Below are positions 6,941 to 62,636 of a stretch of DNA of 64,000 bases, piece by piece. Origin of the DNA: Chiloscyllium plagiosum. Its lineage: Eukaryota. Below the pieces are notes generated by a model that saw nothing but the letters and a program-made list of their open reading frames with translations, was not told where the DNA came from and made no database searches. Location of the stretch: the NCBI RefSeq assembly GCF_004010195.1, contig NC_057719.1, positions 18,683,159 to 18,747,158 of the forward strand, read 5' to 3'. The position numbers and the translations under genes are program-made. Numbering within the stretch: the stretch's first letter is position 1; each line of letters begins with the position of its first letter.

Positions 6941-7126
6941 GCAAAAATGAGGACTGCAGATATCGAGAGACCAGAGTCGAGATGAGAGTGGTGCTGGAAA
7001 AGCACAGCAGGTCAGGCAGCATCTGAATGGGGCTTCCTGATGAAGGGCTTTTACCCAAAACGTTGATTTTCCTGCTCCTCAGGTGCTGCCTGATCTGCTG
7101 TGCTTTTCCAGCACCACTCTGATCCA
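6941..7126. mobile_element. PLE-derived inverted-repeat (hairpin) element, family A
   Basis: Arms GTGGTGCTGGAAAAGCACAGCAGGTCAGGCAGCA and its reverse complement; decayed hammerhead CTGATGAAGGGCTTTTACCCAAAACGTT at 7037; 15-bp TSD AAGTTCACACC(A/C)CAG at 6926-6940 and 7127-7141. Confidence 0.85.
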
Positions 7127-7624
7127 AAGTTCACACCCCAGTCGTTTGCATCTGGGAACAAAAAGCTTCCAAGTGTCAGTGTTTGCTTAATTTGGCCATT
7201 TCAGCGTTCCACATCAAATCCACAATGATCAGGGACATGTCTTCGACTGTGGCATTACAACGAGATGCACTATCCCCTATCATCTAGAGGGTACTGGACA
7301 GTGAAAGCAATTCAAAAATAGTCTGCATGACTGAAAGCGGTCTAAGTAACTTCTAGAATTGGTTTATGCTTGTAATCAGAACTTATCCATTTACTCACCA
7401 TTTCTTCTTTAGATAAGACCCAAACCTGTCTATTGACAATCTCTTGGGCTCAGCACATCTTCTGCTGCGGGTGGTCAGGTCAATGAGTGGATAGGAGGTC
7501 ATTACACAAGGTTAGGTTGAGCATTTCAGATGACACCCAAGAGGTTTGAGAAAGAGAGAGAGATGCTGAGAAAAAAAAGACATTCATCAATTACATGACT
7601 GACAGACTGATCTTCCAATCAGCA

Positions 7625-8055
7625 CAAAGATGGTTAATCCACTTAGCCTGCAGATCCCTCGACACTACAAGGAAATTTGCCATGACCAGTCCACCTAACC
7701 TGCACATCTCTGGACTGTAGGAGGAAACTAAAGCACTCAGCAGAAACCCACGCAAACATAGGAAGAACACAGGAAGAGTAGTAAGGGTATGGAATGCTTT
7801 GCCTGCAGCGGTAGTAGATTCGTCAAGTTTAAATGCATTTAAGTCATCATTGGACAGGCATATGGATGTACATGGAATAGTGTAGGTGGGATGGGCTTCA
7901 GATTAGTATGATAGGGCGGCGCAACATCGAGGGCCGAAGGGCCTGTACTGTGCTGTGATGTTCTATGTTCTATGTTCCACTGACAGTGACCTGAGGCACA
8001 AATCAAACCTGAGTACCTGAGGCTGAGGTAACAGACCTAACTATTGTGCTGCCCT
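7625..8055 (-). mobile_element. Decayed HE1-type SINE split by a + strand CR1 3' end (7770-7976)
   Basis: SINE core CCACCTAACCTGCACATCTCTGGACTGTAGGAGGAAAC; the insert has GTATGGAATGCTTTGCCTG...GGGCCGAAGGGCCTGTACTG and a (TTCTATG)n tail. Confidence 0.8.
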
Positions 8056-8349
8056 GTTTCAAAACTTAAAAAAACATGTGATTATAATTCCAAAGAATAC
8101 TTTAAAAGCACATATATCTGAAAGAAGAGTCTTTTTACAAAATGTTTCATGCAACTCGGATTCTGCGATAAACTATAGCATAGCATTAATGCATTGTAGA
8201 GTTTGCCAACAGAAACACTTTGAAACAAAACATTTCAACCAAAGTTAAAACTGATTACATTATTTGCAAACCCCATCTGTATTAATTCTCCTCATGCTCA
8301 ATCGCAAATTAAAGATGAGTTACAGATGTATCATAAAGAAAACCACACA

Positions 8350-8625
8350 GAATCCCTACAGTATCGAAGCAGGCCATTCAGCCCATACTGACCCTCCCAC
8401 CTCAAAACCCGGCATTTCCCATGGATAATCCACAAAGACCACACATCCCAGGATACCATGGGCAATTTAGCGTGGCCAGTCCACCTAACCTATACATGTT
8501 TAGATTGTGGGACACAGACACAGGGCAAATATGTAAACTCCACACAGACAATCAACCAAGGTTGAAATCAAATCTGGGTCCCTGACAATTTGAGACAGTA
8601 GTGCTCTTCACTCAGTCACCATACT
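8350..8625 (-). mobile_element. HE1-type SINE, decayed
   Basis: GGGCAATTTAGCGTGGCCAGTCCACCTAACC and AAACTCCACACAGAC motifs shared with the other copies. Confidence 0.85.
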
Positions 8626-9069
8626 ACCTCATGTCAGCTATTAGACTTATTCAAAGGTTAATTGCACTGTTGAACGCAGGTATCCTATTGTTTTTACAAA
8701 CATGAGTCTACAGCCTTATTTTCTTTGTTGAAATCTAATTAGTGGAGTCTTATTTCTGCTTATACCATATGACTGACATCCAAGGGTGCATCAGGGAGTA
8801 GGTAGATCATGTTCAAGGGTCTAAAGACACAGCTCATTTGTACACCCCAATGCTGCTGTGCATGAATGACCTTGCCCTATCTGCAATTGTCCCATATCAG
8901 TGAATTCTAAGCATCCCAACACATATCAGTCTCAAACATGGGCAGTCGGCTTATTATTGCATCAGTCATTTGAACTTGGTCCAAAATATCCAAACAATAA
9001 AAATCATACACTTCCAGTCTTTCATCTCTTTGAGGATCTATATTATAGTTAGCTTCATTCACAGAATAG

Positions 9070-9474: not shown

Positions 9475-9785
9475 AGAGCAATCATAGAGCCATAACGCAC
9501 AGAAATAGGGCCTTCAACCCACAACGTCAATGCTGACCAACATACACCAAACTACATTAATCCCAAATATCTGCACTTGGTTCATAGCCTACTATATCTC
9601 AGTGTTGTAAGTAGTCATTCAGATGTTTCTTAAATGCTGCATAAGTACCTGCCTCCGCCTCCATCTCAGGCACCAAGTTCCTCCAAACCACTTTTTCCTC
9701 ACCTTAAACTGGTCTTAGTCATATCTACCATGGGGAAGAGATTCTCACAATCTACTCTGCCTGTGCCTCATGATTTTGTATACCT
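9475..9785 (-). mobile_element. Decayed CR1 LINE 3' end
   Basis: Similar to the minus-strand CR1 3' ends at 15014 and 47160. Confidence 0.7.
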
Positions 9786-9787
9786 CA

Positions 9788-9870
9788 GGATGTAGGTTTG
9801 CTCACTGAGCTGGAAGATTCATTTTCAGACATTTCGTCGCCCTTCGAGGTAACATGTTCAGTGAGCTTCC
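9788..9870 (-). mobile_element. PLE family C terminal fragment
   Basis: GGATGTAGGTTTGCTCACTGAGCTGGAAG...CAGACATTTCGTC...GGTAACATGTTCAGTGAG matches 38508-38590 and 59135-59215. Confidence 0.8.
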
Positions 9871-10959
9871 AAATGGTGCCCAGATCCTTTTGTACATTAA
9901 CCTTTCCCAGTCTTTTAAATAATGCTCTGCCACTTTCCTTTTTCCTATTGAAGTGGAGACCCAATGTTGCATTTACACTGCATCCATATTATCCATATTA
10001 CACTGCACCAGCATTCGTCTGCCCACTCAGGCGACTTGTTTCATTATTTCTGCATAGAGTTTCTGCTCAAGTTCCAGCAAACAAATGGTAGAATTCCTGA
10101 AGAAATTCAACTGTCAAAGTGTCTTCTCAAATTCAGACTCTTGAGTAATAGGAATCAGCTTTATGGCCTTCTCCATTATCTACAAACAAGGCAACATCCA
10201 AGTGATTAATATATATTGTAATTATTGTAAATAATTATAGCCTCAATATTGATTCCTGTAATATTCCACTAATTGCAGGTTGCCAGACTGAAATTGCTCC
10301 TTTTATCCCATCTCTCTGTCTTCTATTATTTAGCCAACCCACTATTCATGCTATTATACTTTCCCACCATCACGGATTCTTATCTTAATAACTTGTTCTA
10401 TACGCAATACCTTATAGAATCTAAATATTTTAAATCCATTGGTTCCCCTATATCTGATGAATGAGCCCCAACACAATGAAAAATGTAGCTTAGCATTTAG
10501 ATGTCTTTATTGATTGTTGTTTTGTAATGACTGGACTTGCTAGAAAGATTACAATGAGCTTTAAACATCCTTCAGCCTCTTAGTTAATTCAGTATCATTC
10601 TTGAATCAGTGTGTCTTCCCTTGTTGTTTCTGATGAGAAATAATGTATAATTACTTGTGTCGAGTTTCATTTACCAAAAGGGTTTTCCACCTTGTAGATT
10701 TTTCTTGTAGTATCTTTACCTCATCAGACTCAATTACTCTCTCTTCCAGTTTCATATGGTTATTTACAGAGTACCATCATTCCAGTTCTCTTAAAAGACC
10801 TGATTCTTAAGTGTCACTGTAAATGACCTCAGTATATCCTGTAATATTGATTATGGAGACCAGGGATTGATTTTTGTTAGTTCTTTTTCCCCTATAGAGA
10901 TTAAATGCTTGCACACTAAAATGGGATTCTTCTCACAGATTACACGTTCATTGTATTTT

Positions 10960-10995
10960 ATTCCTGATGAAGGGCTTTTGCCCGAAACGTCGATT
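10960..10995 (+). ncRNA. Minimal type I hammerhead ribozyme motif, family A, intact core
   Basis: ATTC-CTGATGA-A-GGGC-TTTT-GCCC-GAA-ACGT-C-GATT: catalytic core, 4-bp helix II, palindromic ACGT in place of helix III, GUC cleavage triplet. Activity untested. Confidence 0.7.
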
Positions 10996-11090
10996 TCAAA
11001 GCTCCTTGGATGCTGCCTGAACTGCTGTGCTCTTCCAGCACCACTAATCCAGAATCTGGTTTCCAGCATCTGCAGTCATTGTTTTTACCT
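10960..11090 (+). mobile_element. PLE-derived short element, family A, single arm
   Basis: Starts at TTCCTGATGAAGGGC and ends CCAGCATCTGCAGTCATTGTTTTTACCT. Confidence 0.85.
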
Positions 11091-12245: not shown

Positions 12246-12269
12246 TGATCCAGGTAATCGCCACCCTGG

Positions 12270-12602: not shown

Positions 12603-13110
12603 GAAAAATGTAATAGAAATACAAGCCTTGTTTTCTTTTTAATGATTGACAGTGACATCTGATATTTTCTGAAGAGTGGGTTCGATCTATATTTTATAGA
12701 GGGCTTGTCTCCAAAATATTGCATGATTCCAAATCAGTGCTTCAAAAGAGACTATGCAATGAATTATTTCCATGAGCCATTCTAACAAGTACTTGAGAAG
12801 GCAATTACAGACTTTGACCATTAGGAGCAGAGCAAAAAAGTTTCGATTCCAAGTTTTTGAAAAGTCGAGATTATCAATGTTCCCCTGTGAGGGATTTCCA
12901 TCGAACTCAACTGCCTTAGTTTTAGCTCCGTCCTCCTTGCTAACTTTTCAAGACTAGGGTAGAGTTGAGCACAATGGAGTTTTGCTTAAGAACTAGGCAT
13001 TGGTATAACTGCAGCACTCTGCCAGAGAGAGTTGGTGTAAATCTCTATGCTAAAATGAAAAGTACATTTAAAAATTGTGATCAGTTAAGCTGACTACCTG
13101 TTCTTTCATA

Positions 13111-13318
13111 GTTAAAAATCACACAACATCAGGTTATAGTCCAGCAGGTTTAATTAGAATCACCAGCTTTCAGAGCGCTGCTCCTTCATCAGGTGGTTGT
13201 GACAACAGTGCTCCGAAAGCTAGTGCTTCCAAATAAACGTGTTGGACTATAACCTGGTGTTGCGTGATTTTTAACTTTGTCCATCCCAGTCCAACACCGG
13301 CATCTCGAAATCATGACT
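13111..13318. mobile_element. PLE-derived hairpin element, family B
   Basis: Inverted arms GTTAAAAATCACACAACATCAGGTTATAGTCC and GGACTATAACCTGGTGTTGCGTGATTTTTAAC; end CCCAGTCCAACACCGGCATCTC. Confidence 0.85.
13161..13195 (-). ncRNA. Minimal hammerhead motif, family B
   Basis: Minus strand CAC-CTGATGA-A-GGAGC-AGC-GCTCT-GAA-AGCT-G-GTG; the opposite arm keeps GCTCC-GAA-AGCT-A-GTG. G at the cleavage position probably inactivates this copy. Confidence 0.65.
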
Positions 13319-14479: not shown

Positions 14480-14980
14480 AAAAAAGTGAATGCGAGAAAT
14501 CAGAAACAGAAATGGAAATTACTAGAAAAACTCTAGAGTTCTCGCAGCATCTGTCATCAGAAAGCAAATTTAATATTTTGGGTCCAGTGACCCTTCTTTA
14601 GAACTGTGGACTTCACCAGTTTCTTCATTTCCCCTCCCCCCACCATACCGCAGTTCCAACCTGCCAGCTCAGCACCATCCTCATGACCTATCTGACCTGA
14701 CCATCTTCCTTCCCACCTATCCGCTCCACCCTCCTCTCCAATCTATCACCTTTATCCTCACCTCCATCCACCTATTGCACTCTTAACTACCTTCTCCCCA
14801 GCCCCACCCACCTCCCATTTAGTTCTCCATCCCAGAGCTCCAGCCTCATTCCTGATGAAGGACTCCAGCCCTAATCATCGAATTTCCTGCTCCTCAGATG
14901 CTTCCTGACCTGCTGGGCTTTTCCACCACCACTCTAATCTTGACTCTGATCTCCAGCATCTGCAGTCCTCACTTTCACCA
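14480..14980. mobile_element. PLE remnant: family D inverted arm (14480-14605) joined to a pyrimidine-rich PLE 3' region ending in the family A terminus
   Basis: GGGTCCAGTGACCCTTCTTTAGAAC arm end, then a C/T-rich tract leading into ATTCCTGATGAAGG...CTCCAGCATCTGCAGTCCTCACTTTC. Confidence 0.75.
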
Positions 14981-15013
14981 CTAGTAGTTGTCAAGGCCTT
15001 GGTTATGGTGCCA

Positions 15014-16720
15014 GTCATAGAGTCATAGAGATGTACAGCACGGAAACAGACCCTTTGGTCCAACCTGTCCATTCTGACCAGATATCCGAACCCAATCTAG
15101 TCCCACCTGCCAGCACCCAGATAATATCCCTCCAAACCCTTCCTATTTATATACCTAGCCAAATGCCTCTTAAATGGTGCAATTGTACCAGCCTAGACCA
15201 CTTCCTCTGGCAGTTCATTCCATACCCGTACCACCCGCTGTGTGAAAATGTTGCCCCTTAGGTCTCTTTTATATCTCTTCCCTCTCACCCTAAACCTATG
15301 CCCTCTCATTCTGGACTCCCCAACCCCAGGGAAAAGACTTTGCCTATTTACCCTATCCATGCCCCTCATAATTTTGTAAACTTCCATAAGGTCATCCCTC
15401 AGCATCCGACACTCCAGGGAAAACAGCCCCAGCCTGTACAACCCGTCCTTACAGCTTAAATCCTCCAACCCTAGCAGCATCCTTGTTAGTCTTTTTTGAA
15501 CCCTTTCAAGTTTCACAACAAGTTTCTGATAAGAAGGAGACCAGAATTGCACACAATATTCCATCAGTGGCCTAACCAATGTCCTGTACAGCCACAACAT
15601 GACCTCCCAACTCCTCTACGCAATACTCTGACCAATAAAGGCAAGCATACCAAATGCCTTCTTCACTATCCTATCTACCTGCGACTCCACTTTCAAGGAG
15701 CTATGAACCTGCACTCCAAGGTCTCTTTGTTCAGCAACANNNNNNNNNNNNNNNNNNNNNNNNNNNNNNNNNNNNNNNNNNNNNNNNNNNNNNNNNNNNN
15801 NNNNNNNNNNNNNNNNNNNNNNNNNNNNNNNNNNNNNNNNNNNNNNNNNNNNNNNNNNNNNNNNNNNNNNNNNNNNNNNNNNNNNNNNNNNNNNNNNNNN
15901 NNNNNNNNNNNNNNNNNNNNNNNNNNNNNNNNNNNNNNNNNNNNNNNNNNNNNNNNNNNNNNNNNNNNNNNNNNNNNNNNNNNNNNNNNNNNNNNNNNNN
16001 NNNNNNNNNNNNNNNNNNNNNNNNNNNNNNNNNNNNNNNNNNNNNNNNNNNNNNNNNNNNNNNNNNNNNNNNNNNNNNNNNNNNNNNNNNNNNNNNNNNN
16101 NNNNNNNNNNNNNNNNNNNNNNNNNNNNNNNNNNNNNNNNNNNNNNNNNNNNNNNNNNNNNNNNNNNNNNNNNNNNNNNNNNNNNNNNNNNNNNNNNNNN
16201 NNNNNNNNNNNNNNNNNNNNNNNNNNNNNNNNNNNNNNNNNNNNNNNNNNNNNNNNNNNNNNNNNNNNNNNNNNNNNNNNNNNNNNNNNNNNNNNNNNNN
16301 NNNNNNNNNNNNNNNNNNNNNNNNNNNNNNNNNNNNNNNNNNNNNAGATCCTGTTGTAACCCTCTTCGCTGTCCACTACATCTCCAATTTTGGTGTCATC
16401 TGCAAACTTACTAACTGCACCTCTTATGCTCGCATCCAAATCATTTGTGTAAATCACAAAAAGTAGAGGACCCAGCACCGATCCTTGTGGCACTCCACTG
16501 GTCACAACGCTCCACCACCGCCCTCTGTCTTCTACCTTTGATCCAGTTCTGTATCCAAATGGCTAGTTCTCCCTGTATTCCATAAGATCTAACCTTGCTA
16601 ATCAGTTTCCCATGGGGAATCTTGTCGAATGCCTTATTGAAGTCCATATAGATCACATCTACCACTCTGCCCTCATCAATCCTCTTTGTTACTTCTTCAA
16701 AAAACTCAATCAAGTTTGTC
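15014..16720 (-). mobile_element. CR1 (HER1-type) LINE, 5'-truncated, RT region plus 3' end, spanning the assembly gap
   Basis: [87 protein letters not shown]; (CTCTATGA)n tail. Confidence 0.97.
15740..16345. other. Assembly gap (606 N)
   Basis: Run of N. Confidence 1.
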
Positions 16721-16774
16721 AATGTGATGTCAAGGCCCTTCATGTATGGGAGTTGGGTTAAGGACATGGGAGGA

Positions 16775-17380
16775 GACCCTAAAAGTATAGAATTCGATTT
16801 TGAGTCCAGAGGGCTACAGGGTCCCCAAGTAGAAAATGAGATGCTGTTCTTCCAGCTTGTGCTGAACTTCACTGGAGCACTGCAGCAAGCCTGAGACAGA
16901 GATATTGGCGAGGAAACATGGTGGTGTGTTGAAGGTGCAGGCAACTGGAAGCTCAGGGCAATATTTAAATACAGAACATCGGTATTCTGCAAAGCAGTCA
17001 CCCAGTTTGCATTTTGTCTCCCCAGTGTAGAGGACATGGATTGTGAGCAGTGACTACAGTAGACGAGATTGAGTGAAGTGCAAGTAAATCACTGCTTCAC
17101 CTGGCATGTGTGTATGGGGCTTTGGATACTGAGGAGGGAGGAATTAAGCAGGCAGATGATGCATTTCTGTGAATGTAAGGGAATCTGCCATGTGGGAAGG
17201 CTTTGGGAGTGGAAGAGGAGTGAGCTAGAGTGTCTCGGAAGGAGCAGTCCCTGCGGAAGGCTGATAAGAGAAGGAGCAGTCCCTGCGGAAGGCTGACAAG
17301 GGAGGGGAGGGAAATATGTGCCTGGGTGTGGTATCCCACTGGAAGTGGTGGAAATGGTAGCTAATGATCCTTGATAATGT
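16775..17380 (-). mobile_element. Penelope-like element fragment, GIY-YIG endonuclease region, decayed
   Basis: With stops/frameshifts the minus strand reads FTCTSLNLVYCSHCSQ..LYTGETKCKLGDCFAEY...KLEEQHLIFYLGTL; internal 24-bp repeat at 17241 and 17273. Confidence 0.85.
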
Positions 17381-18285: not shown

Positions 18286-18289
18286 TGAG

Positions 18290-21200
18290 CCCTTTCTGCT
18301 TGACTGGAGAAAACATGCTAACTGCAGCCATCAGCACAACCTTAGAGCAGGACAAGCAATGTGAACTTTGACATGTTAGACTCCTTCTAAGATGGAGTAG
18401 CAACATCTCCCAGGTTATTGTCCACTGTTGTGTAAAACAGAACATTGAATCTTCATATTGCAAGATCTAAATAAATTTAATTCTCCTTTGCTGGAGAGAA
18501 GCAGATTGCTTCATGAAGATTGTAAGCTTGCTTATGGTATAACATTTCAATGATTACCCACACTGTAGGCACCATGTGTAAACTCTGAGACGTACTTCAG
18601 CTGAAAGGGATTTCAGTCTCTCAATGCCAAGCTGGAGTTCAACTATGTACAACATAAAAAGCAGTTCAATACTTTATACTGTGATCCAGATGTTTTCATT
18701 CCATGATAGTGGGATGTATATTGGGTGATAAGGACTATCTACTGACCATAGCCTACAACTTATACACATGGGAACAGTGTGTATATTGCTAAACGCCCTG
18801 CTACCGTGCAGGAAGTATCAAGCACACCATTTGTTTCCATTATTTGTCTGAGGACTCCTGCCATTCTGATCAAAATATTTCCAAAGGTTTTTCACAACTT
18901 CACCAAGAGAGGGCAGCTCTTGGCACCAATGGTGTGGTGATTAGCTGAGGATGAAGAGGGAAGAAATGCATGAGGAAGAAGTGAATGAAAAGGGGAAGAG
19001 GCAACTGACACAGCCCTTTTTTTTGCTGCATTCTCCATGATTAATTCATCTGACTGTTACTGGTAAATCTAGCCCTAATTTCCTATTCATAAAATGTTCT
19101 ACGATTTATCTTGCCTCTGTAACTGACCATCAGAGATTTTCTTGGCCACAATGCTGAAATCACCACAAAATAAACATTTGAAATCAATTTTAAAAACTCG
19201 GCCATGTACAGAAAGTACAACACGCCAATTATGTATGTGCTCTCAGTGTTTGTCTCCTTTTCTAATCATCATGCTCCCATTCAGTGCTACTCCAGTAACT
19301 GTAGTATGGCTGATGGGAAGCTGCTAACTTTTAGCAGGAAAGATGATTTTTCAGAATGCAGTCCAGCAGCTCTGGCTAAAGAAGACCAGACTTCAGTCGA
19401 CACTGTCACAGTATAGCTGAAAGGCAGCAGCAAGGGCATTGGCAGAATTGGAGTGACAGCCAAGCAAGTTGTGCTACAAGAGAAGAACTGGAACTTACTC
19501 AACAAGACCACTTTATCCACCACCTCCTCCACTTCCATTTCTCAGCGTGCTGTTAGTAATTATAATAAACAGCATGATAGTGAGCTGAGCTAGTATGAGT
19601 GCTGTCTGAGCTGTTGTGACAGGACATGAGCACCCATGAGTTCACCAGCAACTGGGCTATTCCAATGTCAGGTGGATTTGGAAACTGGGACATTGTACAT
19701 TCTGGTTGGTTCTGCAAGTGTTACAAGGAGTTGGCCACCATTTCCACACTGGAGATGATAGGACTCCAACTCTGCACAAAACCTAATGCCATGTTGGTGC
19801 TAGCTTCTTCCATGCTCCTTGATATTGTACCTGTGGGAGGCTTCCCAATGCATCAAGCATTTCATGATGCATACACTTCATTGTAGGCCATTCCATTGAA
19901 GTCATCATCAGAATCTCCTGCAGAAGAACTCATGAATGATCTCACATCCAGTGAACTGCACTTTGCTTATCCCCTGCCTGGCTGCAGGTCATGTGCACTC
20001 ATGTGCTGGTCCTTCCTCGAACACAACCTCTAAAAATGTGCAGTGTCAATATCTGAGCACTTGGCTATGAGTGCTAGAGCAAGGCTATATTTCTCTTTTG
20101 TCACAGTTGTCCAGCTGTTCCACAATTGCAGTAGCTGAAGAGCTGAAAGAAAGAATGAAGGCAGAGTCATAGAGAAAGGTGCATTCACTTGCTGCTTCTA
20201 GATTAGATGTAATTGAGGGATTAGGGCATAACGGGACATGAGAAGGAAGATTAGGAATGAGTATGTTGTCATCCTCCTTGTTTTTCGACCTGCTGCTGAC
20301 CATGGCCCTTATGATTAGATGACTTACAGTGTGGAAACAGGCCCTTTGGCCCAACAAGTCCACACCGACCCGCCGAAGCGTAACCCACCCATTCCCCTAC
20401 ATTTACCCAACACTATGGGCAATTTAGCATGGCCAGTTCACCTGACCTGCACATCTTTGGACTGTTGGAGGAAACCCACGCAGACACGGGGAGAATGTGC
20501 AAACTCCACACAGTCAGTCGCCTGAGTCGGGAATTGAACCCGGATCTCTGGCGCTGTGAGGCAGCAATGCTAACCACTGTGCCACCATGCCGCCCGGCAC
20601 GGTGAGCATTGTCTTCTCCATCAGGCTTAGGCCAAGTTGTTGTGCCTCTTCCCTGCCTCTTGTCTCTGGTTTGGTGCCAACTTGCTCTTCAAGGCAGATA
20701 TGAGTGCATCAGTGACGTTGGGCCTTTGTAATTGGTGGTGTGACTGTCATGGTTGAATAGCTGAGAGTTTGTACAGGCGGTGAGATGTGAACCTGTGTTG
20801 CAGCAGTGCTAAGTGTGTGAGAGTATACTCTAAATGTGACTCATTAATCGTGATTGCTAAAGATTGTTGGTGCCTGATAGATGGCGGTATGGTGCATTTA
20901 ACAGTCTCTGAGGCTAATGTGGTGATTTGAAGATATATTTGCCTGCCTTGGCAATTTGGTTGAGGTCAGTGAATGTCTTGCATTATTGCATCCAAGTCCC
21001 TAGGCTAGAAGGATGGTTTGACCACCACAGCTATCTGGTCCCATTATCCTCTGCGATTTTTTTTTCTTGAGGGTTAGTGTGGTTTGGGAAAGTCTTGGAA
21101 CTGCATACTTCCACATTGTGCTAGACTTTGATCACACTCATCTGCTACCAGTTCCAATAGCTGCCCCAGCCAGAAATAATATTCCCTTAAAGAGATGCAA

Positions 21201-24584: not shown

Positions 24585-25031
24585 TAGGGTTGGAGGCCTT
24601 GAGCTGTAGGGAGAGACTGAATAGGCTGTGGCTATTCTCCCTGGAATGTCAGAGGCTGACCTTGTAGAAGTTTATAAAATCATGAGGGGCACAGATCAGG
24701 GAATGAGCAAAGACCTTTCCCCCAGGGTAGGGAAGTATAAAGCTAGTGGGCTTAGGTTTGGGGTTAGTGGGGAAAGACTTAAAAGGGACTCAAGGGGCAA
24801 ATCTTTCATGCAAAGGGTGGTGCATGTATGGAATGAGCTGCCAGAGCAAGTGGTGAGGCTGATATAATTATAACATTTAAAAAGCATCTGGATGGATTTA
24901 TGAATAGGAAGGGTTTAAAGGGATATCGACCATATGCTGGCAAATGGGACGAGATTAATTTAGGATATCTGATCGGCATGGACGAGTTGGACTGAATGAT
25001 CTTTTTCAATGCTGTACATCTCTATGACTCT
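24585..25031 (+). mobile_element. CR1 LINE 3' end
   Basis: DLVEVYKIMRG...FMQRVVHVWNELPEQVV; CTCTATGACTCT tail. Confidence 0.93.
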
Positions 25032-25120
25032 TTGATGTGCATCAAGACTATCATGAAGCCCAGGAATTCTTCAGAAAGGTAAGTTTTAAAAAAAAAACCC
25101 GTCTGAAATTGACTATCAGT

Positions 25121-25481
25121 ATGGTTAAGGAAAAGAAATGCCATGCTGCCATGAAGGATGCCAGGAAAACATCGGGTGCCACCAAAGAATGTCAAGAAGA
25201 AGAGAAGGTCCAGGAAAGAGAGTTACTCCACCTATATCTACAACGGGATGAAGCAGGTTCGCCCCAACACCAGCATCTCCTCCAAGGCCATGTTGGTCAA
25301 CGATATTTTCAAGGACATTGCAGTGGAGATTTCCCGCCTGGCCCGTTACAACAAGCCCAGCACCATCATCTCCTGGGAGATCCAGGCCAACTCCCTGTGG
25401 CTGCTGCTACCCAGGGAGCTGACCAAGCACGCCGTGTCAGAGGGGGCATAGGCAGTGACCGAGTACACCTGCTCCAAACGA
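25121..25481 (+). pseudogene. Histone H2B pseudogene
   Basis: ATG at 25121 (MVKEKK...), a frameshift, then [93 protein letters not shown]. Five-codon deletion, premature TAG at 25449-25451, no histone stem-loop downstream. Confidence 0.95.
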
Positions 25482-27419: not shown

Positions 27420-27508
27420 TTTCCTGATGAAGGGCTTTTGCCCGGAACATTGATTCTCCTGCTCCTTGGATGCTGCCTGACCTGCTGTGCTTCTCCAGCA
27501 CCACACTC
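27420..27508 (+). mobile_element. PLE family A single arm with 12-bp TSD
   Basis: Starts TTCCTGATGAAGGGCTTTTGCCCGGAAC; TSD TCAACTTCTCAA at 27408-27419 and 27509-27520. Confidence 0.85.
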
Positions 27509-43433: not shown

Positions 43434-43700
43434 TGCTGGAAAAGCACAGCAGTTCAGGCAGCATCCGAGGAGCAGGAAAATCAACACTTCGGGCAAAAGC
43501 TCTATTCCTAATGAAGGGCTTTTGCCCGAAACGTCGATTTTCCTGCCTTTTAAATGTTGTAACTGTGCCAGCCTCCACTACTTGCACCTCTAGGTCTCTT
43601 TGTTTGGCAATACTTGCTAGGGCCCTATCATTAACTGTACAAGTCCTGCCCTGGTTTGCCTTAGCATTATGCAACACTTCCCCTTATCAAAATTAAATTA
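43157..43700 (-). mobile_element. CR1 3' end with internal deletion, within a PLE family D remnant (43120-43810)
   Basis: TACAGCACGGAAACAGACCCTTCGGTCCAA...; VLHNAKANQGRTCTVNDRAL. Confidence 0.85.
43315..43543. mobile_element. PLE family A hairpin with 15-bp TSD and a captured 77-bp host segment
   Basis: TSD TGCCTTTTAAATGTT at 43300-43314 and 43544-43558; hammerhead variant CTAATGAAGGGCTTTTGCCCGAAACGTC at ~43508. Confidence 0.9.
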
Positions 43701-44347
43701 AATTGCTGGGAAAACTCAGTTGATCCGGCAATAACATTAACTCTGCTCTCTCCACATAGATGCTGCCAGACCTGCTGAGTTTTTACAACAAATTTTGTTT
43801 TTGTTTTTGAACTATATCTTCCTATCACTTATGTCAAACAGACTATGAGAATTCAACTTATTTATACCAACTGATTCTTGTATATTCATTTACATCTCCC
43901 GTAAACCATGTTTTGGCTAGTGTAAATATTATCAGCTTTTTTTAGTTTCTCCTGTTAGTTCAGATACCTCATTCCTAGTATCAGCTTCATTATCCTCTTC
44001 TCTACATGCTCCAGTCAAACTCACAGCTCCATCTATTTACTGTGACCTTGACATGGTGCCTTTGTACATTTCATTCGTACTTTTTCCCTTTCATTAATAT
44101 TAAGTAACCTATTAGTTTAGGTGTGGAATGGATAATTTTGTTATTAAAGTGCTTCAGGAGATTAAAAAAAAAACCCTTAAACCATCTCAGACAAAACAGA
44201 AAATGCAGGATATATTCAGGTTGGATATCATCTGTGGGGAAAGAAGTAGTGTTAATATTTCAGAACTAATAAAAATTCATTGACTGAAACAACGCTATTC
44301 GGCTTGTTGAACATTTCCAAAATTTTTATTATTTAGATGGAGCATTG

Positions 44348-44723
44348 GCTGAGGGATGATGTTATAGAGATTTATAAAATCATGTGGGACATGGATAGGG
44401 TGAATTGCCAAGTTCTTTCCCCAAGGTGGGCTTGTCCAAAACTAGGCATAGGTTTAACATGAGAGGGGAGAAGGGACCGAAGGGCAACTCTTTCACCCGG
44501 AGGGCGGTGCGTCTATGGAATGAGCTGTCAGAGGAAGTGATGGAGATTGGTACAATTACAACATTTAAAATGCATCTGGATGGGTACAAGAATAGGAAGG
44601 GTTTAGAAGGATATGGGCCAAATGTTGGCAAATGGGACAAGATTAATTTAGGATACTTGATTGGCATAGACGAGTTGGACTGAAGGGTCTGTTTCCGTGA
44701 TTTATATCTTTATGACTCTATGA
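44348..44723 (+). mobile_element. CR1 LINE 3' end
   Basis: FTRRAVRLWNELSEEVMEIGTITTFKMHLDGY; TATGACTCTATGA tail. Confidence 0.93.
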
Positions 44724-45072
44724 CAGTGCAGGCAGTATTTTGTTTTAACCATGTGCAGGTAAAACCTTTTGCTTTCAAATTGATTGAAATCCTGACTTGA
44801 GTAAAAATCCTGACATTGTAAATATGAATGAATGAAAAAGAGCAGAAGTAGACCATTCAGTGCTTTCAGTTAGCTCTGCCATTCAGTAAGATCGTGGCTA
44901 ACCTGGTAATGTTTCCAAATCCATGTGCACATTTGAACCCAATAACCTTTGATCCGTGCCTAAGAAGAATCTCTCCACTTCTGACTTAATAATATTCAAT
45001 GACCTTGCCTCCACAATCTTCTGAGGCAGAGATTTCCAAAGTATAAATAATACAAAGTTAAAATTGGGAAGT

Positions 45073-45789: not shown

Positions 45790-48535
45790 GTTTAGGGAGA
45801 GTATCCAATCAAAAACAAAGCGTACAAAGCATTGAAGATTAGTGGTAGGGCAGAAGTTTGGGAATTTCTTTTAGGAATCAATAGCGGATGACTAAAAGGT
45901 AACGAAGAGGGACAAAATTTATTATGCGAGTAAATTGGAAAGAAGTATAAACTCAAGTAAAGGAGCTTCAACAGATATGTGAAAAATGAAGGAAATAGCT
46001 AAACTAAATGTTAGAACCTTACAGGATGCAACGGGGGAATTGATAACACGGAATAGAGAAATGGCAGATAATTTAAACTAATATCTTGCACTGGTCTTCA
46101 TGGTGAACACCTCAAAGATAATAGATAAGCAAGGTGCTAATTGAAATCAAAGGCCTCATAACAATCTCTACCACAAATACTTGACGAACCAACAGAACTA
46201 AAAACAGAAGTTATCAGGATCAGATGGCTTACATCTAATGGTTTTAAAACAAATTGTTGCAGGGATAGTAGATGCTTTAGTCAAAATATTTTAGAACTGA
46301 TTGAATTCCAGGAGGGTTCCAGTGCATTGGAAAACTGCTAAAATGAGGCCTCCTGTTTAGGAAGGGACTGAGACAGAAAGTAGGAATCTATAGGATAATT
46401 AGCCTAACATTTGTCAGAGGGAAAATGCTAGAGACCATTATTAAGGAAGAAATAGAGGAACATTTAGAAAAGCTTAATAGAATGAAAGGGAATCAACATA
46501 ATTTTGTGAAAGGAAAATCATGTCTGACGTAAGTCTTGAGTTATTTGAAGATGTAAGAAGCAGAGCTGATAAAGGAGAACCAATAGATGTAGTGCATTTT
46601 GATCTTCAGAAGGTGTTTGATAATTACAAGCCAGGACTGGGGCAATGTATTAGCATGAATCAAGAAGACAGATCTTCTTCAGGTTCAAATGACATAACAA
46701 GTGGAAAATCACAAGGATCAGTTCTAGTGCCTCAATTACTTACTAGCTATATTAATGAATTGGAGAAAGAGGCAGAGTATAAAGTCTCCAACTTTGCTGA
46801 TGAGTGAAAAATAAATGGAAGAGTATGTTTTGTGGTGAAGACATTAAAAATTTGCAAAGGGGTATAGATAGGTTGATTGAGTGGACAAAAACCTTGGATT
46901 AATATAGGAAGCAAAAGACAGACTATTATTTAAATAGAAAGAGAATCCAAAACTGCAGTACAAAGGACTGTCTGCATGAAACTTAAATAGTTAGCATGCA
47001 GGCACAACAAGTAATTAAGAAGGCAAATGGAGTTTTGGCTTTTGGAAGTTAAAATTGGGGAAATCCTGTTGCAACTGTACAGAGTATGGGTAAGGTCATA
47101 ACTGGAGTACTGTTACAGTTTTGGTCCCTGTTTCTAAAAAGAAGGATGTACTGGCTTTGGAGTCATACATTCATAGAGTCATAGAGATGTGGAAACAGAC
47201 CCTTCGGTCCAACTCGTCTATGCCAACATATCCCAAACTAACCTAGTCTCATTTGCCAGCACTTGGCCCTATCCCTCGAAATCCTTCCTATTCATATACC
47301 CATCCAGATGCCTTTTAAATGTTGCAATTGTACCAGCCTCCACCACTTCCTCTGGCAGCTCATTCCTTACACGCACTACCCTCTGTGTGAAAAATGACCC
47401 CTTAGGTCCCTTTTATATCTTTCCCCCTCACCCTAAACCTATGCCATCTAGTTCTAGACTCCCCCACCCCAGGGAAGAGACTTTATCTATTTATCCTATC
47501 CATTCCCCTAATGATTTTGAAAACCTCTATAAGGTCATGTCTCATTCTTCGGCGCTCGAGGGAAAACAGCCCCAGCCTATTTAACCTCTCCCTAAAGCTC
47601 AAATTCTCCAACACTGGCAACATCTTTGTAAATCTTTTCTGAACCATTTCAAGTTTCATAACATCCTTCCAAAAGGAAGGAGACCAGAATTGCACGCAGT
47701 ATTACAAAAGTGGCCTAACCAACGTCCTGTGCAGCGCAACTTGACGTCCTAACTCCCGTACTCAATACTCTGACCAATAAAGGAAAGCATACCAAATGCC
47801 TTCTTCACTATCCTATCTACCTGCGACTTTACTTTCAAGGAGTTATGAACCTGCACTCCAAGATCTCTTTGTTCAGTAACACTCCCCAAGACATTACCAT
47901 TAAGTGTATAAATCCCTGCTCTAACTTGCTTTTCCAAAATGCAGCACCTTGCATTTATCTAAATTAAACTCCATCTTCCACTTCTCAGCCCATTAGCCCA
48001 TCTGATCAAGATCCCATTGTAATCTGAGGTAACCTTCTTTGCTGTCCACTACACCTCCAATTTGATTTAGTAGGCTGGTTCCAGCGTGCAGGGGTTGAGT
48101 TATCAAGAATGACTAAACAGGTTAGGCCCTTATTCAGAAGGATGAAGGATGATCTTACTGAAATACACAAGATGCTGAGGGTCTTGACAGGATAAATGCT
48201 AGAAACAGTTTCCACTAATGATGGAGTCCTGAAAAAGGGGCATAAAGGGGTGTTATGGAATAAAGAGGCACTCATTTAAATCAGAGATGCAAATGAAGTC
48301 TTTCCTCCAAGACAGTAGTGAGTGTATGAAATTCTCTACCCCAGAGAGCTGTAGAGACCAGATCACTGACAGTTTTGAAAGAGGAGGTGGACAGATTTTG
48401 AAATTATCGGGGAGTTGGTGATACTGATAAGCTGGCCTGAAGGGGAATTGAGGCCTGGGACAGATAAGCCATGATCTTGTTGAATGGCGGGGCAGGTTTG
48501 TGGTGCTGAATGGTCAAATTCTGCTCCTATTTCTG
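45790..48535 (+). mobile_element. Old CR1 LINE (ORF2 remnant plus 3' end) split by a younger opposite-strand CR1
   Basis: LELFEDVRSRADKGEPIDVVHFDLQKVFD and QGSVLVPQLLTSYINEL...SNFADE; resumes at ~48068 and ends CTGCTCCTATTTCTGATG. Confidence 0.88.
47160..48062 (-). mobile_element. Younger CR1 LINE, 5'-truncated
   Basis: EQRDLGVQVHNSLKVKSQVDRIVKKAFGMLSFIGQSIEY and VQFWSPSFWKDVMKLE; same family as 15014. Confidence 0.96.
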
Positions 48536-50469: not shown

Positions 50470-52015
50470 AATTAAAAGCAAAGTACTGCAGATGCTGGAG
50501 ATCTGAAATCAATCCTGGACTGGCAATATCTGCAAGCAGTGAGCCAAAATTAATCTTTCAAATTCAATAACTCGTCCATGCTGACCAAGCTTCCTAAACT
50601 GAACAATCCCATTGTTAGAGGGCCCAAAACCCTCTAAACCTCACCCAATGAAGGGCTTACGCTCCTCGGATGCTGCCTGACCTGCTGTGCTTTTCCAGCA
50701 TCACACTTTTTGACGCTGATCTCCAGTCCTCATTTTCTCCTTACCTATCCATGTACCTATCCAAATGTCTTTTAAATATTGTAATAGTATCTGCCTCTAC
50801 CACTTCCTCTGACAGCTTGTTCCATATATGCAGCAACCTCTGTGTGAAAAAAGTTGCCCCTCAGGTCCCTTTTAACTCTTTCCCCTCTCATCTAAATGAC
50901 TCTATGACTCTATATAACTCTTCTTTGGAACTGAAAAGGGCTGGGAAAGTGATAGCTTTTATTCTGTTGAGAGGTTGAGGGAAGAAGAATGAGTGGGACA
51001 GTTGGGAAAGGTGCCCAAATTAAAAGGCAAGGGGAGAATCAATGATAGTGGAGGAGCGATATCAATGAAGAGTGGGTATTTATGGTAATTATTAACAACA
51101 GAAAATAGGTTAGCACTGCTGAGAGTAAATCCATGCAAACAAGGCAGTGAGAGGAAGTGGGGGAATGGAAACTAATCAGACTGGAGGACCAAGTTCATGC
51201 TTTGATATTGGTGAACTCAATGTTGATTCCTGAAGGCTAGAAAATGCCATAAGAGAAAATGAAGTGGTGTCCCTTCAGCTTGCATTGGACTTCACCATAC
51301 AAGTCTGGGGTAGGAAAGTTAGCTTGAGGACAAAATGTGTATTGGAATGACAAACAACCAGAATGTCAAGTCATTTTTGCAAAGAGAATGGAGGAGTTCC
51401 ACAAAACAGAAACCCAGTCTGTGTTTTAGTCTTGCCAATATGGAAGAGACTGCACTGTAAGCATTGAGTAGAGTAGACTGAATTATAAAAAGTCTAAGTC
51501 AATCACTCCTTCATCTGGAAGCTGCCATTATGGTCTTGGTTAGTTAGAGGGAAGTGGTAAAGTGCTACATTATCTGTATTGCATGGGACAGTGCTGTGGA
51601 GTTGGAGGATGAGGAAGATGTGAAGACATCATAAAAGTGACGTGGTGTAGATCAGATTATTAGAGAGAAATTTATTCTTATGCAGTGTTGACAGGAAAAG
51701 GGAGAGAAGGTATGCCTAGTTGTGGCATTCAGCTGAATGGAACAGAAATGGCAAAGGGTAATCCTTTGAATGCTAAGGCTGGTGGGGTGGAAAGTGAGAG
51801 CAAGGGGATCCCATTTGTTGTTCTACGAAAGAGGAAAAGAGCTGACAGCAGGACTGTGACAAATGAGGTCAGGAACAATTGAACGGCCTGTCCATGCATA
51901 ACTTAAAAACAACACCTTTCCAGCCTCTCAGTTCTGAAAAACTGGACTCAAAATGTTAACTCTTCACAGCCGTTACCAGACCTGCTGAGTTTTTCCAGAA
52001 CTTTCTGTTTTTATA
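50470..52015. mobile_element. Long decayed PLE (family D termini, GIY-YIG remnant on - at ~51190-51600) containing a CR1 3' end (50570-50915), itself containing a family A fragment (50645-50740)
   Basis: Termini AAAAGCAAAGTACTGCAGATGCTGGAGATCTGAAA and CCAGACCTGCTGAGTTTTTCCAGAACTTTCTGTTTT; interior similar to 16775-17380. Confidence 0.75.
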
Positions 52016-52567: not shown

Positions 52568-52694
52568 ACAAAGTTCAGAATGAATTATAATCTCAAACTT
52601 GAATCCTCAGAATCCCAGGTGGAGACAACAATAGATTAGAGTTCTGAAATTAAGATTTTAAGTGCTGGTATTGGCAAACTTAAAAAATACTTTT

Positions 52695-53228
52695 GGGATA
52701 CTGCATGCAATTCTGGTCTCCCTGCTGTAGAAAAGATGTCTTTAAACTTGAAAGCGTTCAGCAAAGATTTACAAGGATGCTACCAGAGTTGGGGAATTAT
52801 AAGGAGAGGCTGAATAGGCTGTGCCTATTTTCCCTGAAGCGTGGGAGGCTGTGGGGGTGACCTTAGAGAGATTTATAAAATCATGAAGGGCATAGACAAG
52901 GTCGTTTTTCCAGTGTTGATGAGTCCAGAGCTAGAGGCCATACTTTGAAGGTGAGAGGGGAAAGATTTAAACGGGACCGAAGGAGCAACATTTTCATGCA
53001 GAGGATGATGCGTGTATGGAACGAGCTGTCAGAAGAAGTGGTGGAGGATGGTGCAATTACAACATTTAAAAGGTATCTGAGTGGATATATGAATAGGAAG
53101 GGTCTAGAGGGATGTGGGCCAAATGCTAACAAATAGAACTAGATTAATCTAGGATATCTCGTTGGCATGGATAAGTTGAACCAAACAGCCTGTTTCCAGA
53201 CTGTATAGCTCTATGACTCCATGACTCC
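52695..53228 (+). mobile_element. CR1 LINE 3' end
   Basis: YCMQFWSPC; FMQRMMRVWNELSEEVVEDGAITTFKRYL; tail repeats. Confidence 0.93.
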
Positions 53229-56095: not shown

Positions 56096-56227
56096 TCGAG
56101 GAGAAAGTGAGGTCTGCAGATGCTGGAGATCAAAGTTGAAACTTTATTGCTGGAACAGCACAGCAGGTCAGGCAGCATCCAGGGAACAGGAGATTCGATG
56201 TTTCGGGCACAGGCCCTTCTTCAGGAA
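56096..56227 (-). mobile_element. PLE family A single arm with 14-bp TSD
   Basis: TSD TGTAAGTGCATTCT at 56082-56095 and 56228-56241. Confidence 0.92.
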
Positions 56228-56228
56228 T
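56193..56228 (-). ncRNA. Minimal hammerhead motif, family A
   Basis: ATTC-CTGAAGA-A-GGGC-CTGT-GCCC-GAA-ACAT-C-GAAT; perfect 4-bp helix I, palindrome CpG-decayed. Confidence 0.65.
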
Positions 56229-59098: not shown

Positions 59099-59100
59099 CA

Positions 59101-59400
59101 AGTTTTGAGAAGATTTGTAGCTCAGGCTGACGTTCTGGATGTAGGTTTGCTCGCTGAGCTGGAAGGTTCATTTTCAGACGTTTTGTCCCATTCTAGGTAA
59201 CATCTTTAGTGAGCCTCCAGACGAAGCACTGCTGGTGATTCCTGCTTTCTATTTATATGTTTGGGTTTCTTTGGGTTGGTTATTTTATTTCCTGTGGTGA
59301 TGTCATTTCCTGTTCTTTTTCTCAGAGGGTGATAAAATATCAACAAACACATTGACTTGGACCCCATTTACCACCCCTAAGATAAAGAACAGAAAATGAC
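59101..59400. mobile_element. PLE family C fragment with short inversion
   Basis: TTTTGAGAAGATTTGTAGCTCAG is the reverse complement of the 38508 element end; CAACAAACACATTGACTTGGACCCCATTTACC lies on the opposite strand. Confidence 0.85.
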
Positions 59401-60618
59401 AGTTCAGAGCGACCTGCTGTGAATTTGATCATGCAATGCATTTGACAGCAGTGAAGATAAACCTCTCCCTAAACTATTCCCTGTCTTGCCAGTGGAATGG
59501 AAGTTAATCTTCGCCAGTCTTTTCCCTCCTTTGACAGCACAAGACATTCAGCCTACATCCCCACAGAAGGTGGCACTTTCCACTGGTACTTCGACAAATC
59601 ACAGTGACGATTGCTCGCAAAACTAATGACTCTACCCGTGACATTATAAATATTTACAACGTCACCTTTTTTTTGTAATTGGTTACTCATTATTCCTATA
59701 GCAAATTGCAACAGACTTTGATGATCTCTATAAAAATCGCTACTAGCCAATAGGAAAACCTCACAATATTCTTTGCAAATCTGCCAGACCGCTTTCAAAG
59801 TTCCCCGGCTGTGCAGAATTGCAATAAACCATCAGAGAGCGATAGACTCCCTGGAGTGATGGTTGGTTTATAATACAGTATTTACATAAAATTGTTGCAA
59901 TAGATTATATTTCCACACATTCATAACTAGAAACAATTTTCAATTAAACAGTCCTCAATTACTGACTGTAACAAAAAAAATTGGACTCCAAATAGAGTTA
60001 AGACTATTTAAAAATGAAAACTTTTTTGTAAACATAGCAATGCATGTCCTTTTGAGTACATATTCAAACAGTGATAACGATGAATTAAAGGCCTTAGGCT
60101 ACTGCCTGTGCAGTATTTCCATTCAACTGCATACCAAAGAGCTAGAACAATTTACAATAAACATGAGGCTATTACAATTCAATCAAAAGATGTTTTGAGC
60201 AAAATAATGTGAAATTAAATCTTCTAGGATTCTGTATATTAAAATTTAGGCAGTCAATAAAATCTGGCCTACGATTGCCATTTGTCATAGGACAGATTAT
60301 TTCGCTATGACTAAAGTTTCTTTTATATGTGTTGTCATTTTTAATGTTTAAAATACAAGTATAATATCATTGTTATAACGTAAGCCTTGACAGATTAGGG
60401 TTTATAAACCTTAGCATAAAAGAAGCAAATGTCGAGGAGGTTCATTCCTTTTATACAAAGCTGCAATTATTTAAAATAGCCCGTGGACATTTTTTTTTAA
60501 TTGACAAAAAGAAGCATTCTGGTTAGGTACATGCGTATGTAATTTGATAACTGACCTTGTATTGTTAAGTTTGCAGGATGCAGTGAAATTTGTGTATTAT
60601 TGTGCATTTTTAGATTTA

Positions 60619-61146
60619 GGGGCGGCAGGATGGCTCAGTGGTTAGCGCTGCTGCCTCATAGCACCAGGGTTCCAGGTTCAATTCCAGCCTAGGGTGACTG
60701 TCTGTGTGGAGTTTGCACATTCTCCCCGTGTCTGTGTGGGTTTCCTCCAGTGTTCCGGTTTCCTCCCACAGTCCAAAGATGTGCAGGTCAGGTGAATTGG
60801 CCAGGCTAAATTGCCCATAGTGTTAGGTGCATTAGTCAGAGGAAAATGGGTCTGGGTGGTTACTCTTTGGAGGGTCAGTGTGGACTGGTTGGGCCAAAGG
60901 GCCTGTTTCCACACTGTAGGGAATCTAATCTAATCATCCTGTGTCTGCGTGGGTTTCCTCCAGATGCTCCGGTTTCCTCTCACAGTCCAAAGATGTGCAG
61001 GTTAGGTGAATTGGCCATGCTAAATTGCCCGTAGTGTTAGGTGAAGGGGTAAATGTAGGGATATGGGTGGGTAGCGCTTCGTCGGGTCAGTGTGCACTTG
61101 TTGGGCTGAAGGGCCTGTTTCCGCACTGTAAGTAATCTATTCTAAT
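60619..61146 (+). mobile_element. Tandem HE1-type SINEs: full copy 60619-60935 plus 5'-truncated copy 60938-61146
   Basis: Two CACAGTCCAAAGATGTGCAGG cores and two tails. Confidence 0.95.
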
Positions 61147-61859
61147 CCCAAAGCCCACAAATAACTTCTTCAATTTGTAAAATTTATTTAGTTTTATATT
61201 TTGCAGACAGTCAGATTAATGTCAATCAGCGTGAATCAAGGGGTAGGATGTCTTTTGTTCTCAACACAATTGGAGAAGAGGTTAGGTGTTCGTTATGGAG
61301 AATTAATGAAAATGTATGAGAAGAAATATTCATTAACGAGTATTTATACATTGGGTCAGCGCCAGAATTAGTCATCTATACAAGTCTCCTCCCACTCTAA
61401 TACCTGCCTTGCCCCATGTTTCCTCCTGAACAAGTCAGTCCTTTTATTATTTGCATTAATGTAATTTGTTTTTACCACTCCATGTGGTAGTAAGTTCAAC
61501 ATTCTCACATACTCTGCTCAAAGCAATTCTAAATTTTTGATTTGATCTGTTAATGATTAGCTTGCAATTATGTTGACTTGTTCTCAACTCAACCACAAGT
61601 AGAAATCATTTCCACAAGTCTCTACTATCTACCCTCTTTAATTGTTCTCAATCTCTATCAGGTATTCTCTCTGTGTCCTTCCAGTGGACAGTGCCCGGAC
61701 CTGTTCAATCTTTAATTAAATTCATTAATGGAATCAAATATAATTTGTAGGAGAACAATGCTCCAATGTGCCAAATATCCTTTTTTTTTCATGTCTTGTT
61801 GTCTTAAATGGCCATAGAAACAAAAGACATGAAATGATCCATTGAACCTATCTTGTCAA

Positions 61860-61953
61860 GACAAAAGTCACATACCAGCTTTCAGAGCACTGTTCCTTCG
61901 TTGACTTTTGACTTTGTCTACCCCAGTCCAACACCGGCACCTCCATATCATGA
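61860..61953. mobile_element. PLE family B remnant
   Basis: CCAGCTTTCAGAGCACTGTTCCTTC and CCCCAGTCCAACACCGGCACCTCC, as at 13111. Confidence 0.75.
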
Positions 61954-62084
61954 CAACTCATCCTATAGATAGTTTCTAATCAACCTGTTCAGAGTTGTAT
62001 TAAACCTCTGGAATTGGTAGGACTTGAACTCAGGCCACAAAAGCACCTCCATATATTATTTGAAACACCCATTTCCACTATGCA

Positions 62085-62636
62085 GAGACAAAAAATAGAA
62101 ATTGCTGGAAAAGCTCAGCAGGTCTGGCAGCATCTAGAGGGAAATCAAAGTTAATGTTTCGTGTTGAGTTCTAAGGAAGGGTCACGTGACTCGAAACGTT
62201 AATTCTGATTTCTCTCCACAGATGCTGCTAGACGTTTTTAGATTAGATTCGATTCGATTACTTACAGTGTGGAAACAGGCACTTCGGCCCAACAAGTCCA
62301 CACCGACCCTCCGAAGAGCAACCCAGCCAGAACCATTCCCCTGCATTTACCCCTTTACCTAACACTATGGAGAAATTTAGCATGGCCAATTCACCCAACC
62401 TGCACATTTTTGGACTGTGAGAGGAAACCGGAGCACCTGGAGGAAACCCACGCGGACACGGGGAGAATATACAAACTCCACACAGACAGTTGCCTGAGGT
62501 GGGAATTGAACCTGGATCTCTGGCGCTGTGAGGCAGCAGTGCTAACCACTGTGCCACCGTGCTGTCCTGCTGAGCTTTTCCAGCAATTTCTATTTTCGTC
62601 CCTGATTTACAGGATCTGCAGTTCTTTCGGTTTTTT
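62085..62636. mobile_element. PLE family D hairpin with a young HE1 SINE (62240-62566, -) inserted in its right arm
   Basis: Arms AAATAGAAATTGCTGGAAAAGCTCAGCAGG and CCTGCTGAGCTTTTCCAGCAATTTCTATTT; SINE complete with head and tail. Confidence 0.9.
62168..62203 (+). ncRNA. Minimal hammerhead motif, family D, one core substitution
   Basis: GTT-CTAAGGA-A-GGGTC-ACGT-GACTC-GAA-ACGT-T-AAT. Confidence 0.55.

Follow-up and report, generated by a model that had tools for sequence, protein, structure and literature searches.

The window analysed here, a 64,000-nucleotide stretch of the Chiloscyllium plagiosum genome (NCBI RefSeq assembly GCF_004010195.1, contig NC_057719.1, positions 18,683,159 to 18,747,158 of the forward strand), contains short repeats that carry small hammerhead ribozyme motifs. 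Judged by sequence, these motifs are minimal type I hammerheads in the pseudo-long terminal repeats (pLTRs) of four families, A to D, of endonuclease-containing (EN+) Penelope-like elements (PLEs). Within the mechanism set out below, which as a whole we consider probable, the short copies would be cDNAs of the front end of the element RNA and not a separate non-autonomous family. We also propose, tentatively and with somewhat more doubt than belief, that the hammerhead is transcribed first, that its cleavage decaps the element mRNA as a protein-assisted off switch and that insertion junctions record both the capped start and cleavage in vivo. The copy number is so high that junction positions become a statistical read-out of germline RNA templates, making start site and cleavage testable by counting.

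Hammerhead motifs in the window

We drew profiles from the window together with 120 blind 10-kb stretches of chromosome-scale contigs (the genomic sample; 1,159,765 non-N bases). In the window they identified 28 hammerhead-bearing repeat arms, 13 of family A, 2 of B, 4 of C and 9 of D, many of them paired as inverted repeats with 3′ ends facing outward. The motifs are real and exceed chance: in a relaxed scan of the window seven score at least 9 versus 0–1 in each of ten Markov shuffles, and a strict descriptor matches the genomic sample 93 times versus none in four shuffles. Each of the 13 coordinates in the original prediction, made from the sequence alone, falls within a repeat arm that has a hammerhead-like core; six are on the minus strand. 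The arms and related element fragments are as follows.

6939–7119, both arms: decayed family-A palindrome, core at 7037
10960–11090, plus strand: young family-A stub with an intact hammerhead (10960–10995; C3 at 10964, predicted cut after 10991) and both 3′ ends of the PLE tail
14848–14967, plus strand: decayed family-A arm, absent from the original prediction
27421–27514, plus strand: decayed family-A arm
31351–31529, both arms: decayed family-A palindrome, core at 31450 on the minus strand
39424–39628, both arms: family-A palindromic insertion; plus arm (39534–39628) with a near-intact hammerhead, minus arm truncated within helix II and with tail
43428–43559, both arms: decayed family-A palindrome, core at 43508 with G5 changed
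50649–50726, plus strand: family-A arm with the ribozyme partly deleted
56114–56228, minus strand: arm of a family-A subfamily with a 4-bp helix I, decayed palindrome
13107–13317, both arms: family-B palindrome; minus-arm core at 13192 with G17, plus arm truncated in loop II, tail at the right
9785–9872, minus strand: decayed family-C arm, absent from the original prediction
38506–39021, both arms: family-C palindrome, each arm with the last codons of the PLE open reading frame (ORF), pLTR and a decayed hammerhead (38579, minus; 38914, plus)
59137–59295, minus strand: decayed family-C arm, absent from the original prediction
14501–14605, minus strand: decayed family-D arm
26462–26628, both arms: decayed family-D palindrome
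31536–31759, minus strand: two decayed family-D arms (31536–31591 and 31671–31759)
43733–43802, plus strand: family-D tail fragment
51941–52012, plus strand: family-D tail fragment
62083–62235, both arms: family-D palindrome, core at 62171 broken, G5 changed
16829–17377, minus strand: broken RT-linker/GIY-YIG coding fragment of a D-type PLE (RT, reverse transcriptase); a D motif lies shortly downstream in 13 of 19 relatives

The sole fully intact motif is that at 10960–10995, whose stub recurs at 99–100% identity in 39 other places among the matches listed (1616 candidates). Next best is 39534, nearly intact with a G–U pair at the base of helix II. Damage or truncation affects 26 of the 28 arms, and non-intact copies show an altered core base, a CpG-decayed palindrome, G at position 17 or truncation. 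The palindrome is decayed at 56224 (minus), 38579 (minus) and 38914; the family-B core at 13192 (minus) has the G17; and every family-D copy in the window has a broken core or is truncated.

A search of the window against Rfam matched no hammerhead family. Its microRNA matches were merely the palindromes, and a CPEB3/HDV-like match at 26271–26346 (minus strand; 24.5 bits against a cut-off of 35, E 0.039) was set aside as probably due to chance.

Ribozyme anatomy and covariation

The family masters carry the boxes CUGANGA and GAAA with an NUH cut site, a combination found in the window only at 10960 and 39534, together with the extra base ahead of helix II and the G10.1–C11.1 pair. The original assignment to a known class, minimal type I hammerheads derived from Penelope elements, is correct. 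Its four families each have a hammerhead, and their full separateness was not borne out, A and D being sister lineages that share a tail. The consensus drawn for B proved to be a composite of both arms of one palindrome, the core of one arm itself carrying G17, and the G/A ambiguity in the D core reflects decay; the true D core is CUGAGGA or CUGAAGA, with a 4-bp helix I. Helix I is 3–4 bp in C and 3 bp in B, and most A copies have 2 bp, a U–U mismatch and 1 bp, the weakest case.

Pairing was said to be kept in helices I and II of all families. The stems do show compensatory changes, but the third helix-I pair of A is usually U–U (for the two most frequent intact types of the genomic sample, 24 such versus 6 with full pairing), so pairing is not fully kept in that family. 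Across 14 sequences of families A and D, six of nine pairs change on both sides, including a switch from C3–G8 to U3–A8, and in ten family-C sequences helix-I pair 3 is U–A, G–C or C–G according to subfamily. A covariation check gave a score reached by none of 500 shuffles, a count not to be taken as a probability because the sequences are related and mostly chosen as intact. The compensatory changes point to selection on the RNA fold in the family masters.

The U3–A8 cores belong to a D subfamily that the original prediction had missed. It is young and ORF-bearing, lies outside the window (L157, L158), is represented by 1,619 exact 21-mers without C at −13 (positions here and below are relative to C3) and may owe its core to CpG decay at G8 and a later compensating change. 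The strict descriptor found no G3–C8 or A3–U8 core in the genomic sample. An intact palindrome replaces helix III in 59 of 86 strict C3–G8 matches and five of seven U3–A8 matches, the rest showing mostly CpG decay. In the predicted monomer fold of the 10960 insert, helix II forms with probability 0.96 and helix I with 0.02.

Host elements

All four families link to ORFs with RT and GIY-YIG sequences, which argues that the short copies are the ends of autonomous elements and not a separate family. The family-A motif is found ahead of the start of a long ORF; at one locus (L167) two identical A motifs on one strand, 3,697 bp apart, flank the ORF start and a 3-kb assembly gap, and at two others (L082, L084) endonuclease fragments lie 246–325 nt upstream of A motifs. 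A family-B locus (L104) runs from RT motifs through a zinc/cysteine linker and a GIY-YIG domain to the hammerhead. Thirty D endonuclease loci are followed by a D motif in 23 cases, an A motif in three and neither in four, and D open frames of 497 and 509 amino acids have 407 homologs, many marked PF00078, PF26215 and PF01541. The window's C palindrome includes the final codons of an ORF for which a first look gave 72,887 candidates, and longer C copies have RT and GIY-YIG motifs upstream, with no cysteine linker. The best named homologs of an element ORF are in sharks and rays, at 54–63% identity, in keeping with a shark host. Six window peptides and two ORF pieces scanned locally against Pfam gave no RT or GIY-YIG match, and a PDB sequence search gave no match.

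The layout is that of EN+ PLEs, with direct pLTRs around an ORF (L167, gap inside), inverted truncated copies and two 3′ ends. A CX2-5CxxC linker ahead of the endonuclease separates Neptune from Penelope/Poseidon elements (PMC8557442). By this criterion, B and D would be Neptune-type and C, which lacks the linker, Penelope/Poseidon-type; A is grouped with D only provisionally, through the shared tail and protein similarity. The original prediction had the motifs riding on abundant short non-autonomous elements. This finds no support, since the same motifs end long RT/GIY-YIG copies and copy length is continuous from about 60 bp up to full length.

A second broken D-type coding fragment in the window, at 51347–51822 (minus strand), adjoins the D tail at 51941.

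Number and arrangement in the genome

Strict matches in the genomic sample comprise 86 C3–G8 and 7 U3–A8 motifs. Fully intact motifs number 64, or 55 per Mb (bootstrap 40–71), which extrapolates over 3.556 Gb to about 190,000 (140,000–240,000); a direct genome count of one exact intact family-A pattern gave 96,333, with a control of 0. Arms of all kinds number 396 in the sample and about 1.2 million genome-wide. They include 183 in outward inverted pairs, 30 with a same-strand neighbour within 700 bp and 202 alone, the classes overlapping, and palindromic copies are predicted to fold into long hairpins (−150 and −99 kcal/mol).

A very large genomic ribozyme load had been foreseen. The motif count is indeed very large, but it counts motifs and not active ribozymes, given 183 of 396 arms in inverted pairs and only 30 with a same-strand partner. 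This last figure implies that most genomic copies are probably inert relics, and if cleavage needs a partner, few could cut in cis. Retrozymes, as tandem units each with an intact hammerhead, are not seen in the window, and only 30 of 396 sampled arms are in tandem.

Some tandem arrangements occur elsewhere. On the minus strand of L168 (G000:C17:46330000-46336000), four A units 248–321 nt apart form a retrozyme-like array with one of four cores intact, and L063 is a family-C tandem. Young A insertions at L026-L045 are made of several template jumps between ORF start and pLTR, and some of their units restart at the 5′ edge of the ribozyme.

Insertion junctions

Boundary counts are shaped by how copies were selected. 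A first count could be inflated where a subfamily lacks a long reference, and boundaries were recounted with subfamily-matched references, some mismatches remaining, and with genome-wide patterns; apparent C boundaries at −2/+1 were dropped because of this inflation risk. Hand tallies cover the first 100 rows from one chromosome, and the A, B and D edge patterns exclude copies with C at −13, so that long B and D copies are undercounted.

On the 3′ side copies end near +89 and at or past +121, the upper value being set by extraction length; the 20 inspected loci each stop at either of two points spaced about 35 nt, the PLE tail. The 5′ ends pile up 0–6 nt (A, D) or about 8 nt (B) ahead of the core. 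With matched references, 145 of 214 A arms were assignable, 69 without a close long reference being left out; 67 of the 145 start at −8 to +4, 6 at −39 to −9 and 35 are longer. Among the first 100 of 39,204 A matches, 70 stop at −6 to 0, none at −7 to −12 and 30 continue upstream. Family D stops exactly at −4 in 51 of its first 100 matches, and the B edge is the A at −8. The edge base stands in what we take to be an initiator-like context (YYA/CA).

Just outside the A edge, at −5, where the element has C, the genome has G in 3,017 copies and A in 1,449. Background frequencies are 0.205 for G and 0.294 for A, and overlapping palindrome centres make up 22 of the first 100 A rows at this position. 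Of 20 G loci, none runs on into the pLTR, and the G is plainly untemplated in eight, shared with the target in six, shared with the partner arm in four and unclear in two. Untemplated G at the 5′ ends of full-length L1 and SVA insertions has been attributed to copying of the cap (PMC3287187). The 5′ pile-up and the upstream G excess are likely a cap footprint.

A second, smaller peak lies at the predicted cut. Family-A copies truncated between +20 and +35 yielded 3,725 matches, of which we scored the first 100 rows (8 unreadable or ambiguous). Sixteen of the 100 start at +28, the first base after C17, versus a mean of 4.0 over +22 to +27 and +29 to +35; +20 and +21 (15 and 9 rows) were left out as inflated by the filter and by partner microhomology. 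The Poisson P of this excess is 5e-6; restricted to the 11 rows lacking T at +27, it is 0.003. All 16 loci are true insertion junctions, one with a 13-bp target duplication abutting +28. This peak suggests a footprint of ribozyme cleavage, self-cleavage itself being predicted.

Proposed mechanism and alternatives

In the mechanism that we propose, RNA polymerase II would start at the initiator-like A, the first base of helix I, so that the ribozyme would be the very start of the capped RNA. The element RT would start internally, about 90 or 125 nt downstream, and run to the cap, adding opposite it a C, read as G in the genome; palindromes would result from priming on both target strands, longer copies from read-through RNA or template jumps, and partial tandems from template jumps. 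The 4-bp palindromic helix III predicts that the ribozyme needs a second copy, or an element protein, to cut, and cleavage, predicted on a few percent of templates, would strip family-A RNA of its first 32 nt together with the cap. Several steps are known from an anole element in vitro, namely an internal RT start, two-strand priming, an uncut template and protein-assisted cleavage (PMC11167929). In Drosophila Penelope, transcription starts 46 nt ahead of an intron (PMC2377424) that ends at helix I (PMC4209133), a precedent for a ribozyme near the cap.

Several observations weigh against these proposals. At the cut site, only 3 of 145 A arms in the random sample start at +28, with no clear excess; among the 16 rows at +28, five have T at +27 and four jump back to the element's own 5′ part; and the peak, a hand count of one family on one chromosome, may reflect a stall or microhomology. 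The family-A helix I is weak, with a pairing probability of 0.02 in the monomer. At the 5′ edge, family C shows no clear boundary, and the G may partly reflect junction microhomology or cut-site preference (10 of 20 shared). Position −5 in D is mostly C (23 C, 15 G, 13 A), and in B 9 of the 14 G, versus 3 A, could belong to the partner arm. The D edge, with its pyrimidine tract and AG, resembles a splice acceptor, the edge patterns drop long copies with C at −13 and the tallies were made by hand on one chromosome. Clade placement, made from linker and similarity, is likewise provisional. One single-cell RNA run (X21) gave 853 and 1,550 reads, on both strands, with no pile-up of RNA ends or common ends; 94–97% continue into unlike sequence, consistent with copies inside host transcripts, and the reads bear neither on expression nor on where the RNA starts or is cut. 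A second run (X22) gave no reads.

A rival account keeps the same elements. It puts the pile-ups down to RT stalling, to a splice acceptor or to resolution of the intermediate by the endonuclease at a preferred site in the element's own pLTR, and sees junction microhomology behind the excess of G and that at the cut site. It draws on the preference of the anole enzyme for ATT (PMC11167929), with which family A begins, but B and D boundaries lack ATT. A splice acceptor would fit the D tract with AG at −4/−3 and the Drosophila intron ending at helix I (PMC4209133), yet A and B have no AG at the boundary. Microhomology would cover the 10 of 20 loci where G is common to target or partner but not the eight untemplated ones; flanks at the adjacent −3 boundary are not rich in G (1 of 12 rows counted by hand), and the second peak lies on the chemically predicted base. 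We regard this account as unlikely.

Far less credible is a reading along the lines of the original prediction, in which short non-autonomous families, resembling SINEs or retrozymes, would multiply from short masters of their own, perhaps through circular RNA, and burden the genome with many active ribozymes. In its favour, short copies predominate, those of 134 bp include many that are near-identical, tandem arrays exist (L168, four units) and an internal promoter, as in Drosophila Penelope (PMC2377424), could allow stub transcription. Against it, stubs match long ORF copies of their own subfamily in sequence, and all that lies beyond the RT start, a part required for binding by the anole protein (PMC11167929), is missing from them; 5′ ends lie mostly at the ribozyme front and not at the cut site; and tandems are few (30 of 396 arms; one of four cores intact at L168), while palindromes bury the fold. 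There is a negligible probability that the motifs match by accident or that they have decayed and escaped selection, since, for all the damage to 26 of 28 window arms, shuffles gave no matches and compensatory changes separate subfamily masters; this reading is refuted for the masters and holds for individual copies.

PLE hammerheads are slow in vitro, dispensable for insertion in one reconstituted system and without cleaved ends in RNA-seq. If the decapping proposal is right, shark genomes would preserve the Penelope RNA cycle in a million fossil copies, and with it the first in vivo evidence of PLE ribozyme cutting, and a circular template would be disfavoured for most insertions. The junction positions name the exact sites of the predicted start and cut.

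Other features of the window

An assembly gap of 606 bases spans 15740–16345.
CR1-like LINE pieces, as we presume them to be, lie at 15013–17088, 24654–25044, 44471–44724, 47188–47720 and 52689–53226.
An abundant repeat that we take to be SINE-like occurs, for example, at 6112–6387, 20308–20595 and 62246–62567.
A likely processed pseudogene at 25028–25630 (plus strand) resembles histone H2B in decayed form (PF00125 at E 3.9e-5, which misses the cut-off).

Comparison with known systems

The hammerheads described in PMC4209133 have the same core, extra base ahead of helix II, G10.1–C11.1 pair and palindrome in place of helix III, and likewise form several covarying families per genome, mostly as single copies of truncated PLEs; the U3–A8 variant is common to the D subfamily here and to Schistosoma. 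The roughly 190,000 intact motifs here are 20–50 times the approximately 4,000 of coelacanth and 9,000 of Xenopus counted there with a different descriptor. That study proposes circles, whereas the junctions here favour capped linear templates; the covered text and supplement file 2 name no shark.

The Poseidon element of the green anole, PAc (Frangieh 2024, PMC11167929), also has its ribozyme at the pLTR–ORF junction, two internal RT starts 30–40 nt apart, priming of both strands and uncut RNA as the main template. In contrast to the junctions here, it shows no RNA ends at the cut site, and the available part of the report describes no pile-up at the ribozyme 5′ edge. PAc is Poseidon, whereas A, B and D are Neptune-type by our placement (A by similarity to D). 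Canonical EN+ PLEs (Craig 2021, PMC8557442; Arkhipova 2013, PMC3846280) share 5′ truncation, partial tandems, inverted copies, an optional tail and a GIY-YIG domain with internal CxxC, as well as the zinc linker seen in B and D and absent from C, and an Inr-like element is described in a rotifer pLTR. They differ from the estimated 1.2 million or so arms here, most of which measure 60–135 bp and begin at a fixed 5′ point.

Non-LTR retrozymes (Li, Clavereau and Pollet, bioRxiv 10.64898/2026.07.22.740005) also carry PLE-derived type I hammerheads and include one chondrichthyan, but are tandem arrays with intact motifs, absent from the window and rare in the genomic sample. The original prediction left open whether such motifs had been described for sharks; that preprint already reports hammerhead retrozymes in one chondrichthyan, and apart from it, a literature search outside subscription journals and Repbase found no published shark report and no cap or junction footprint for PLEs. 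The motif class and host elements are already known, and the main interest lies in the copy number together with two junction footprints that suggest where element RNAs start and are cut.

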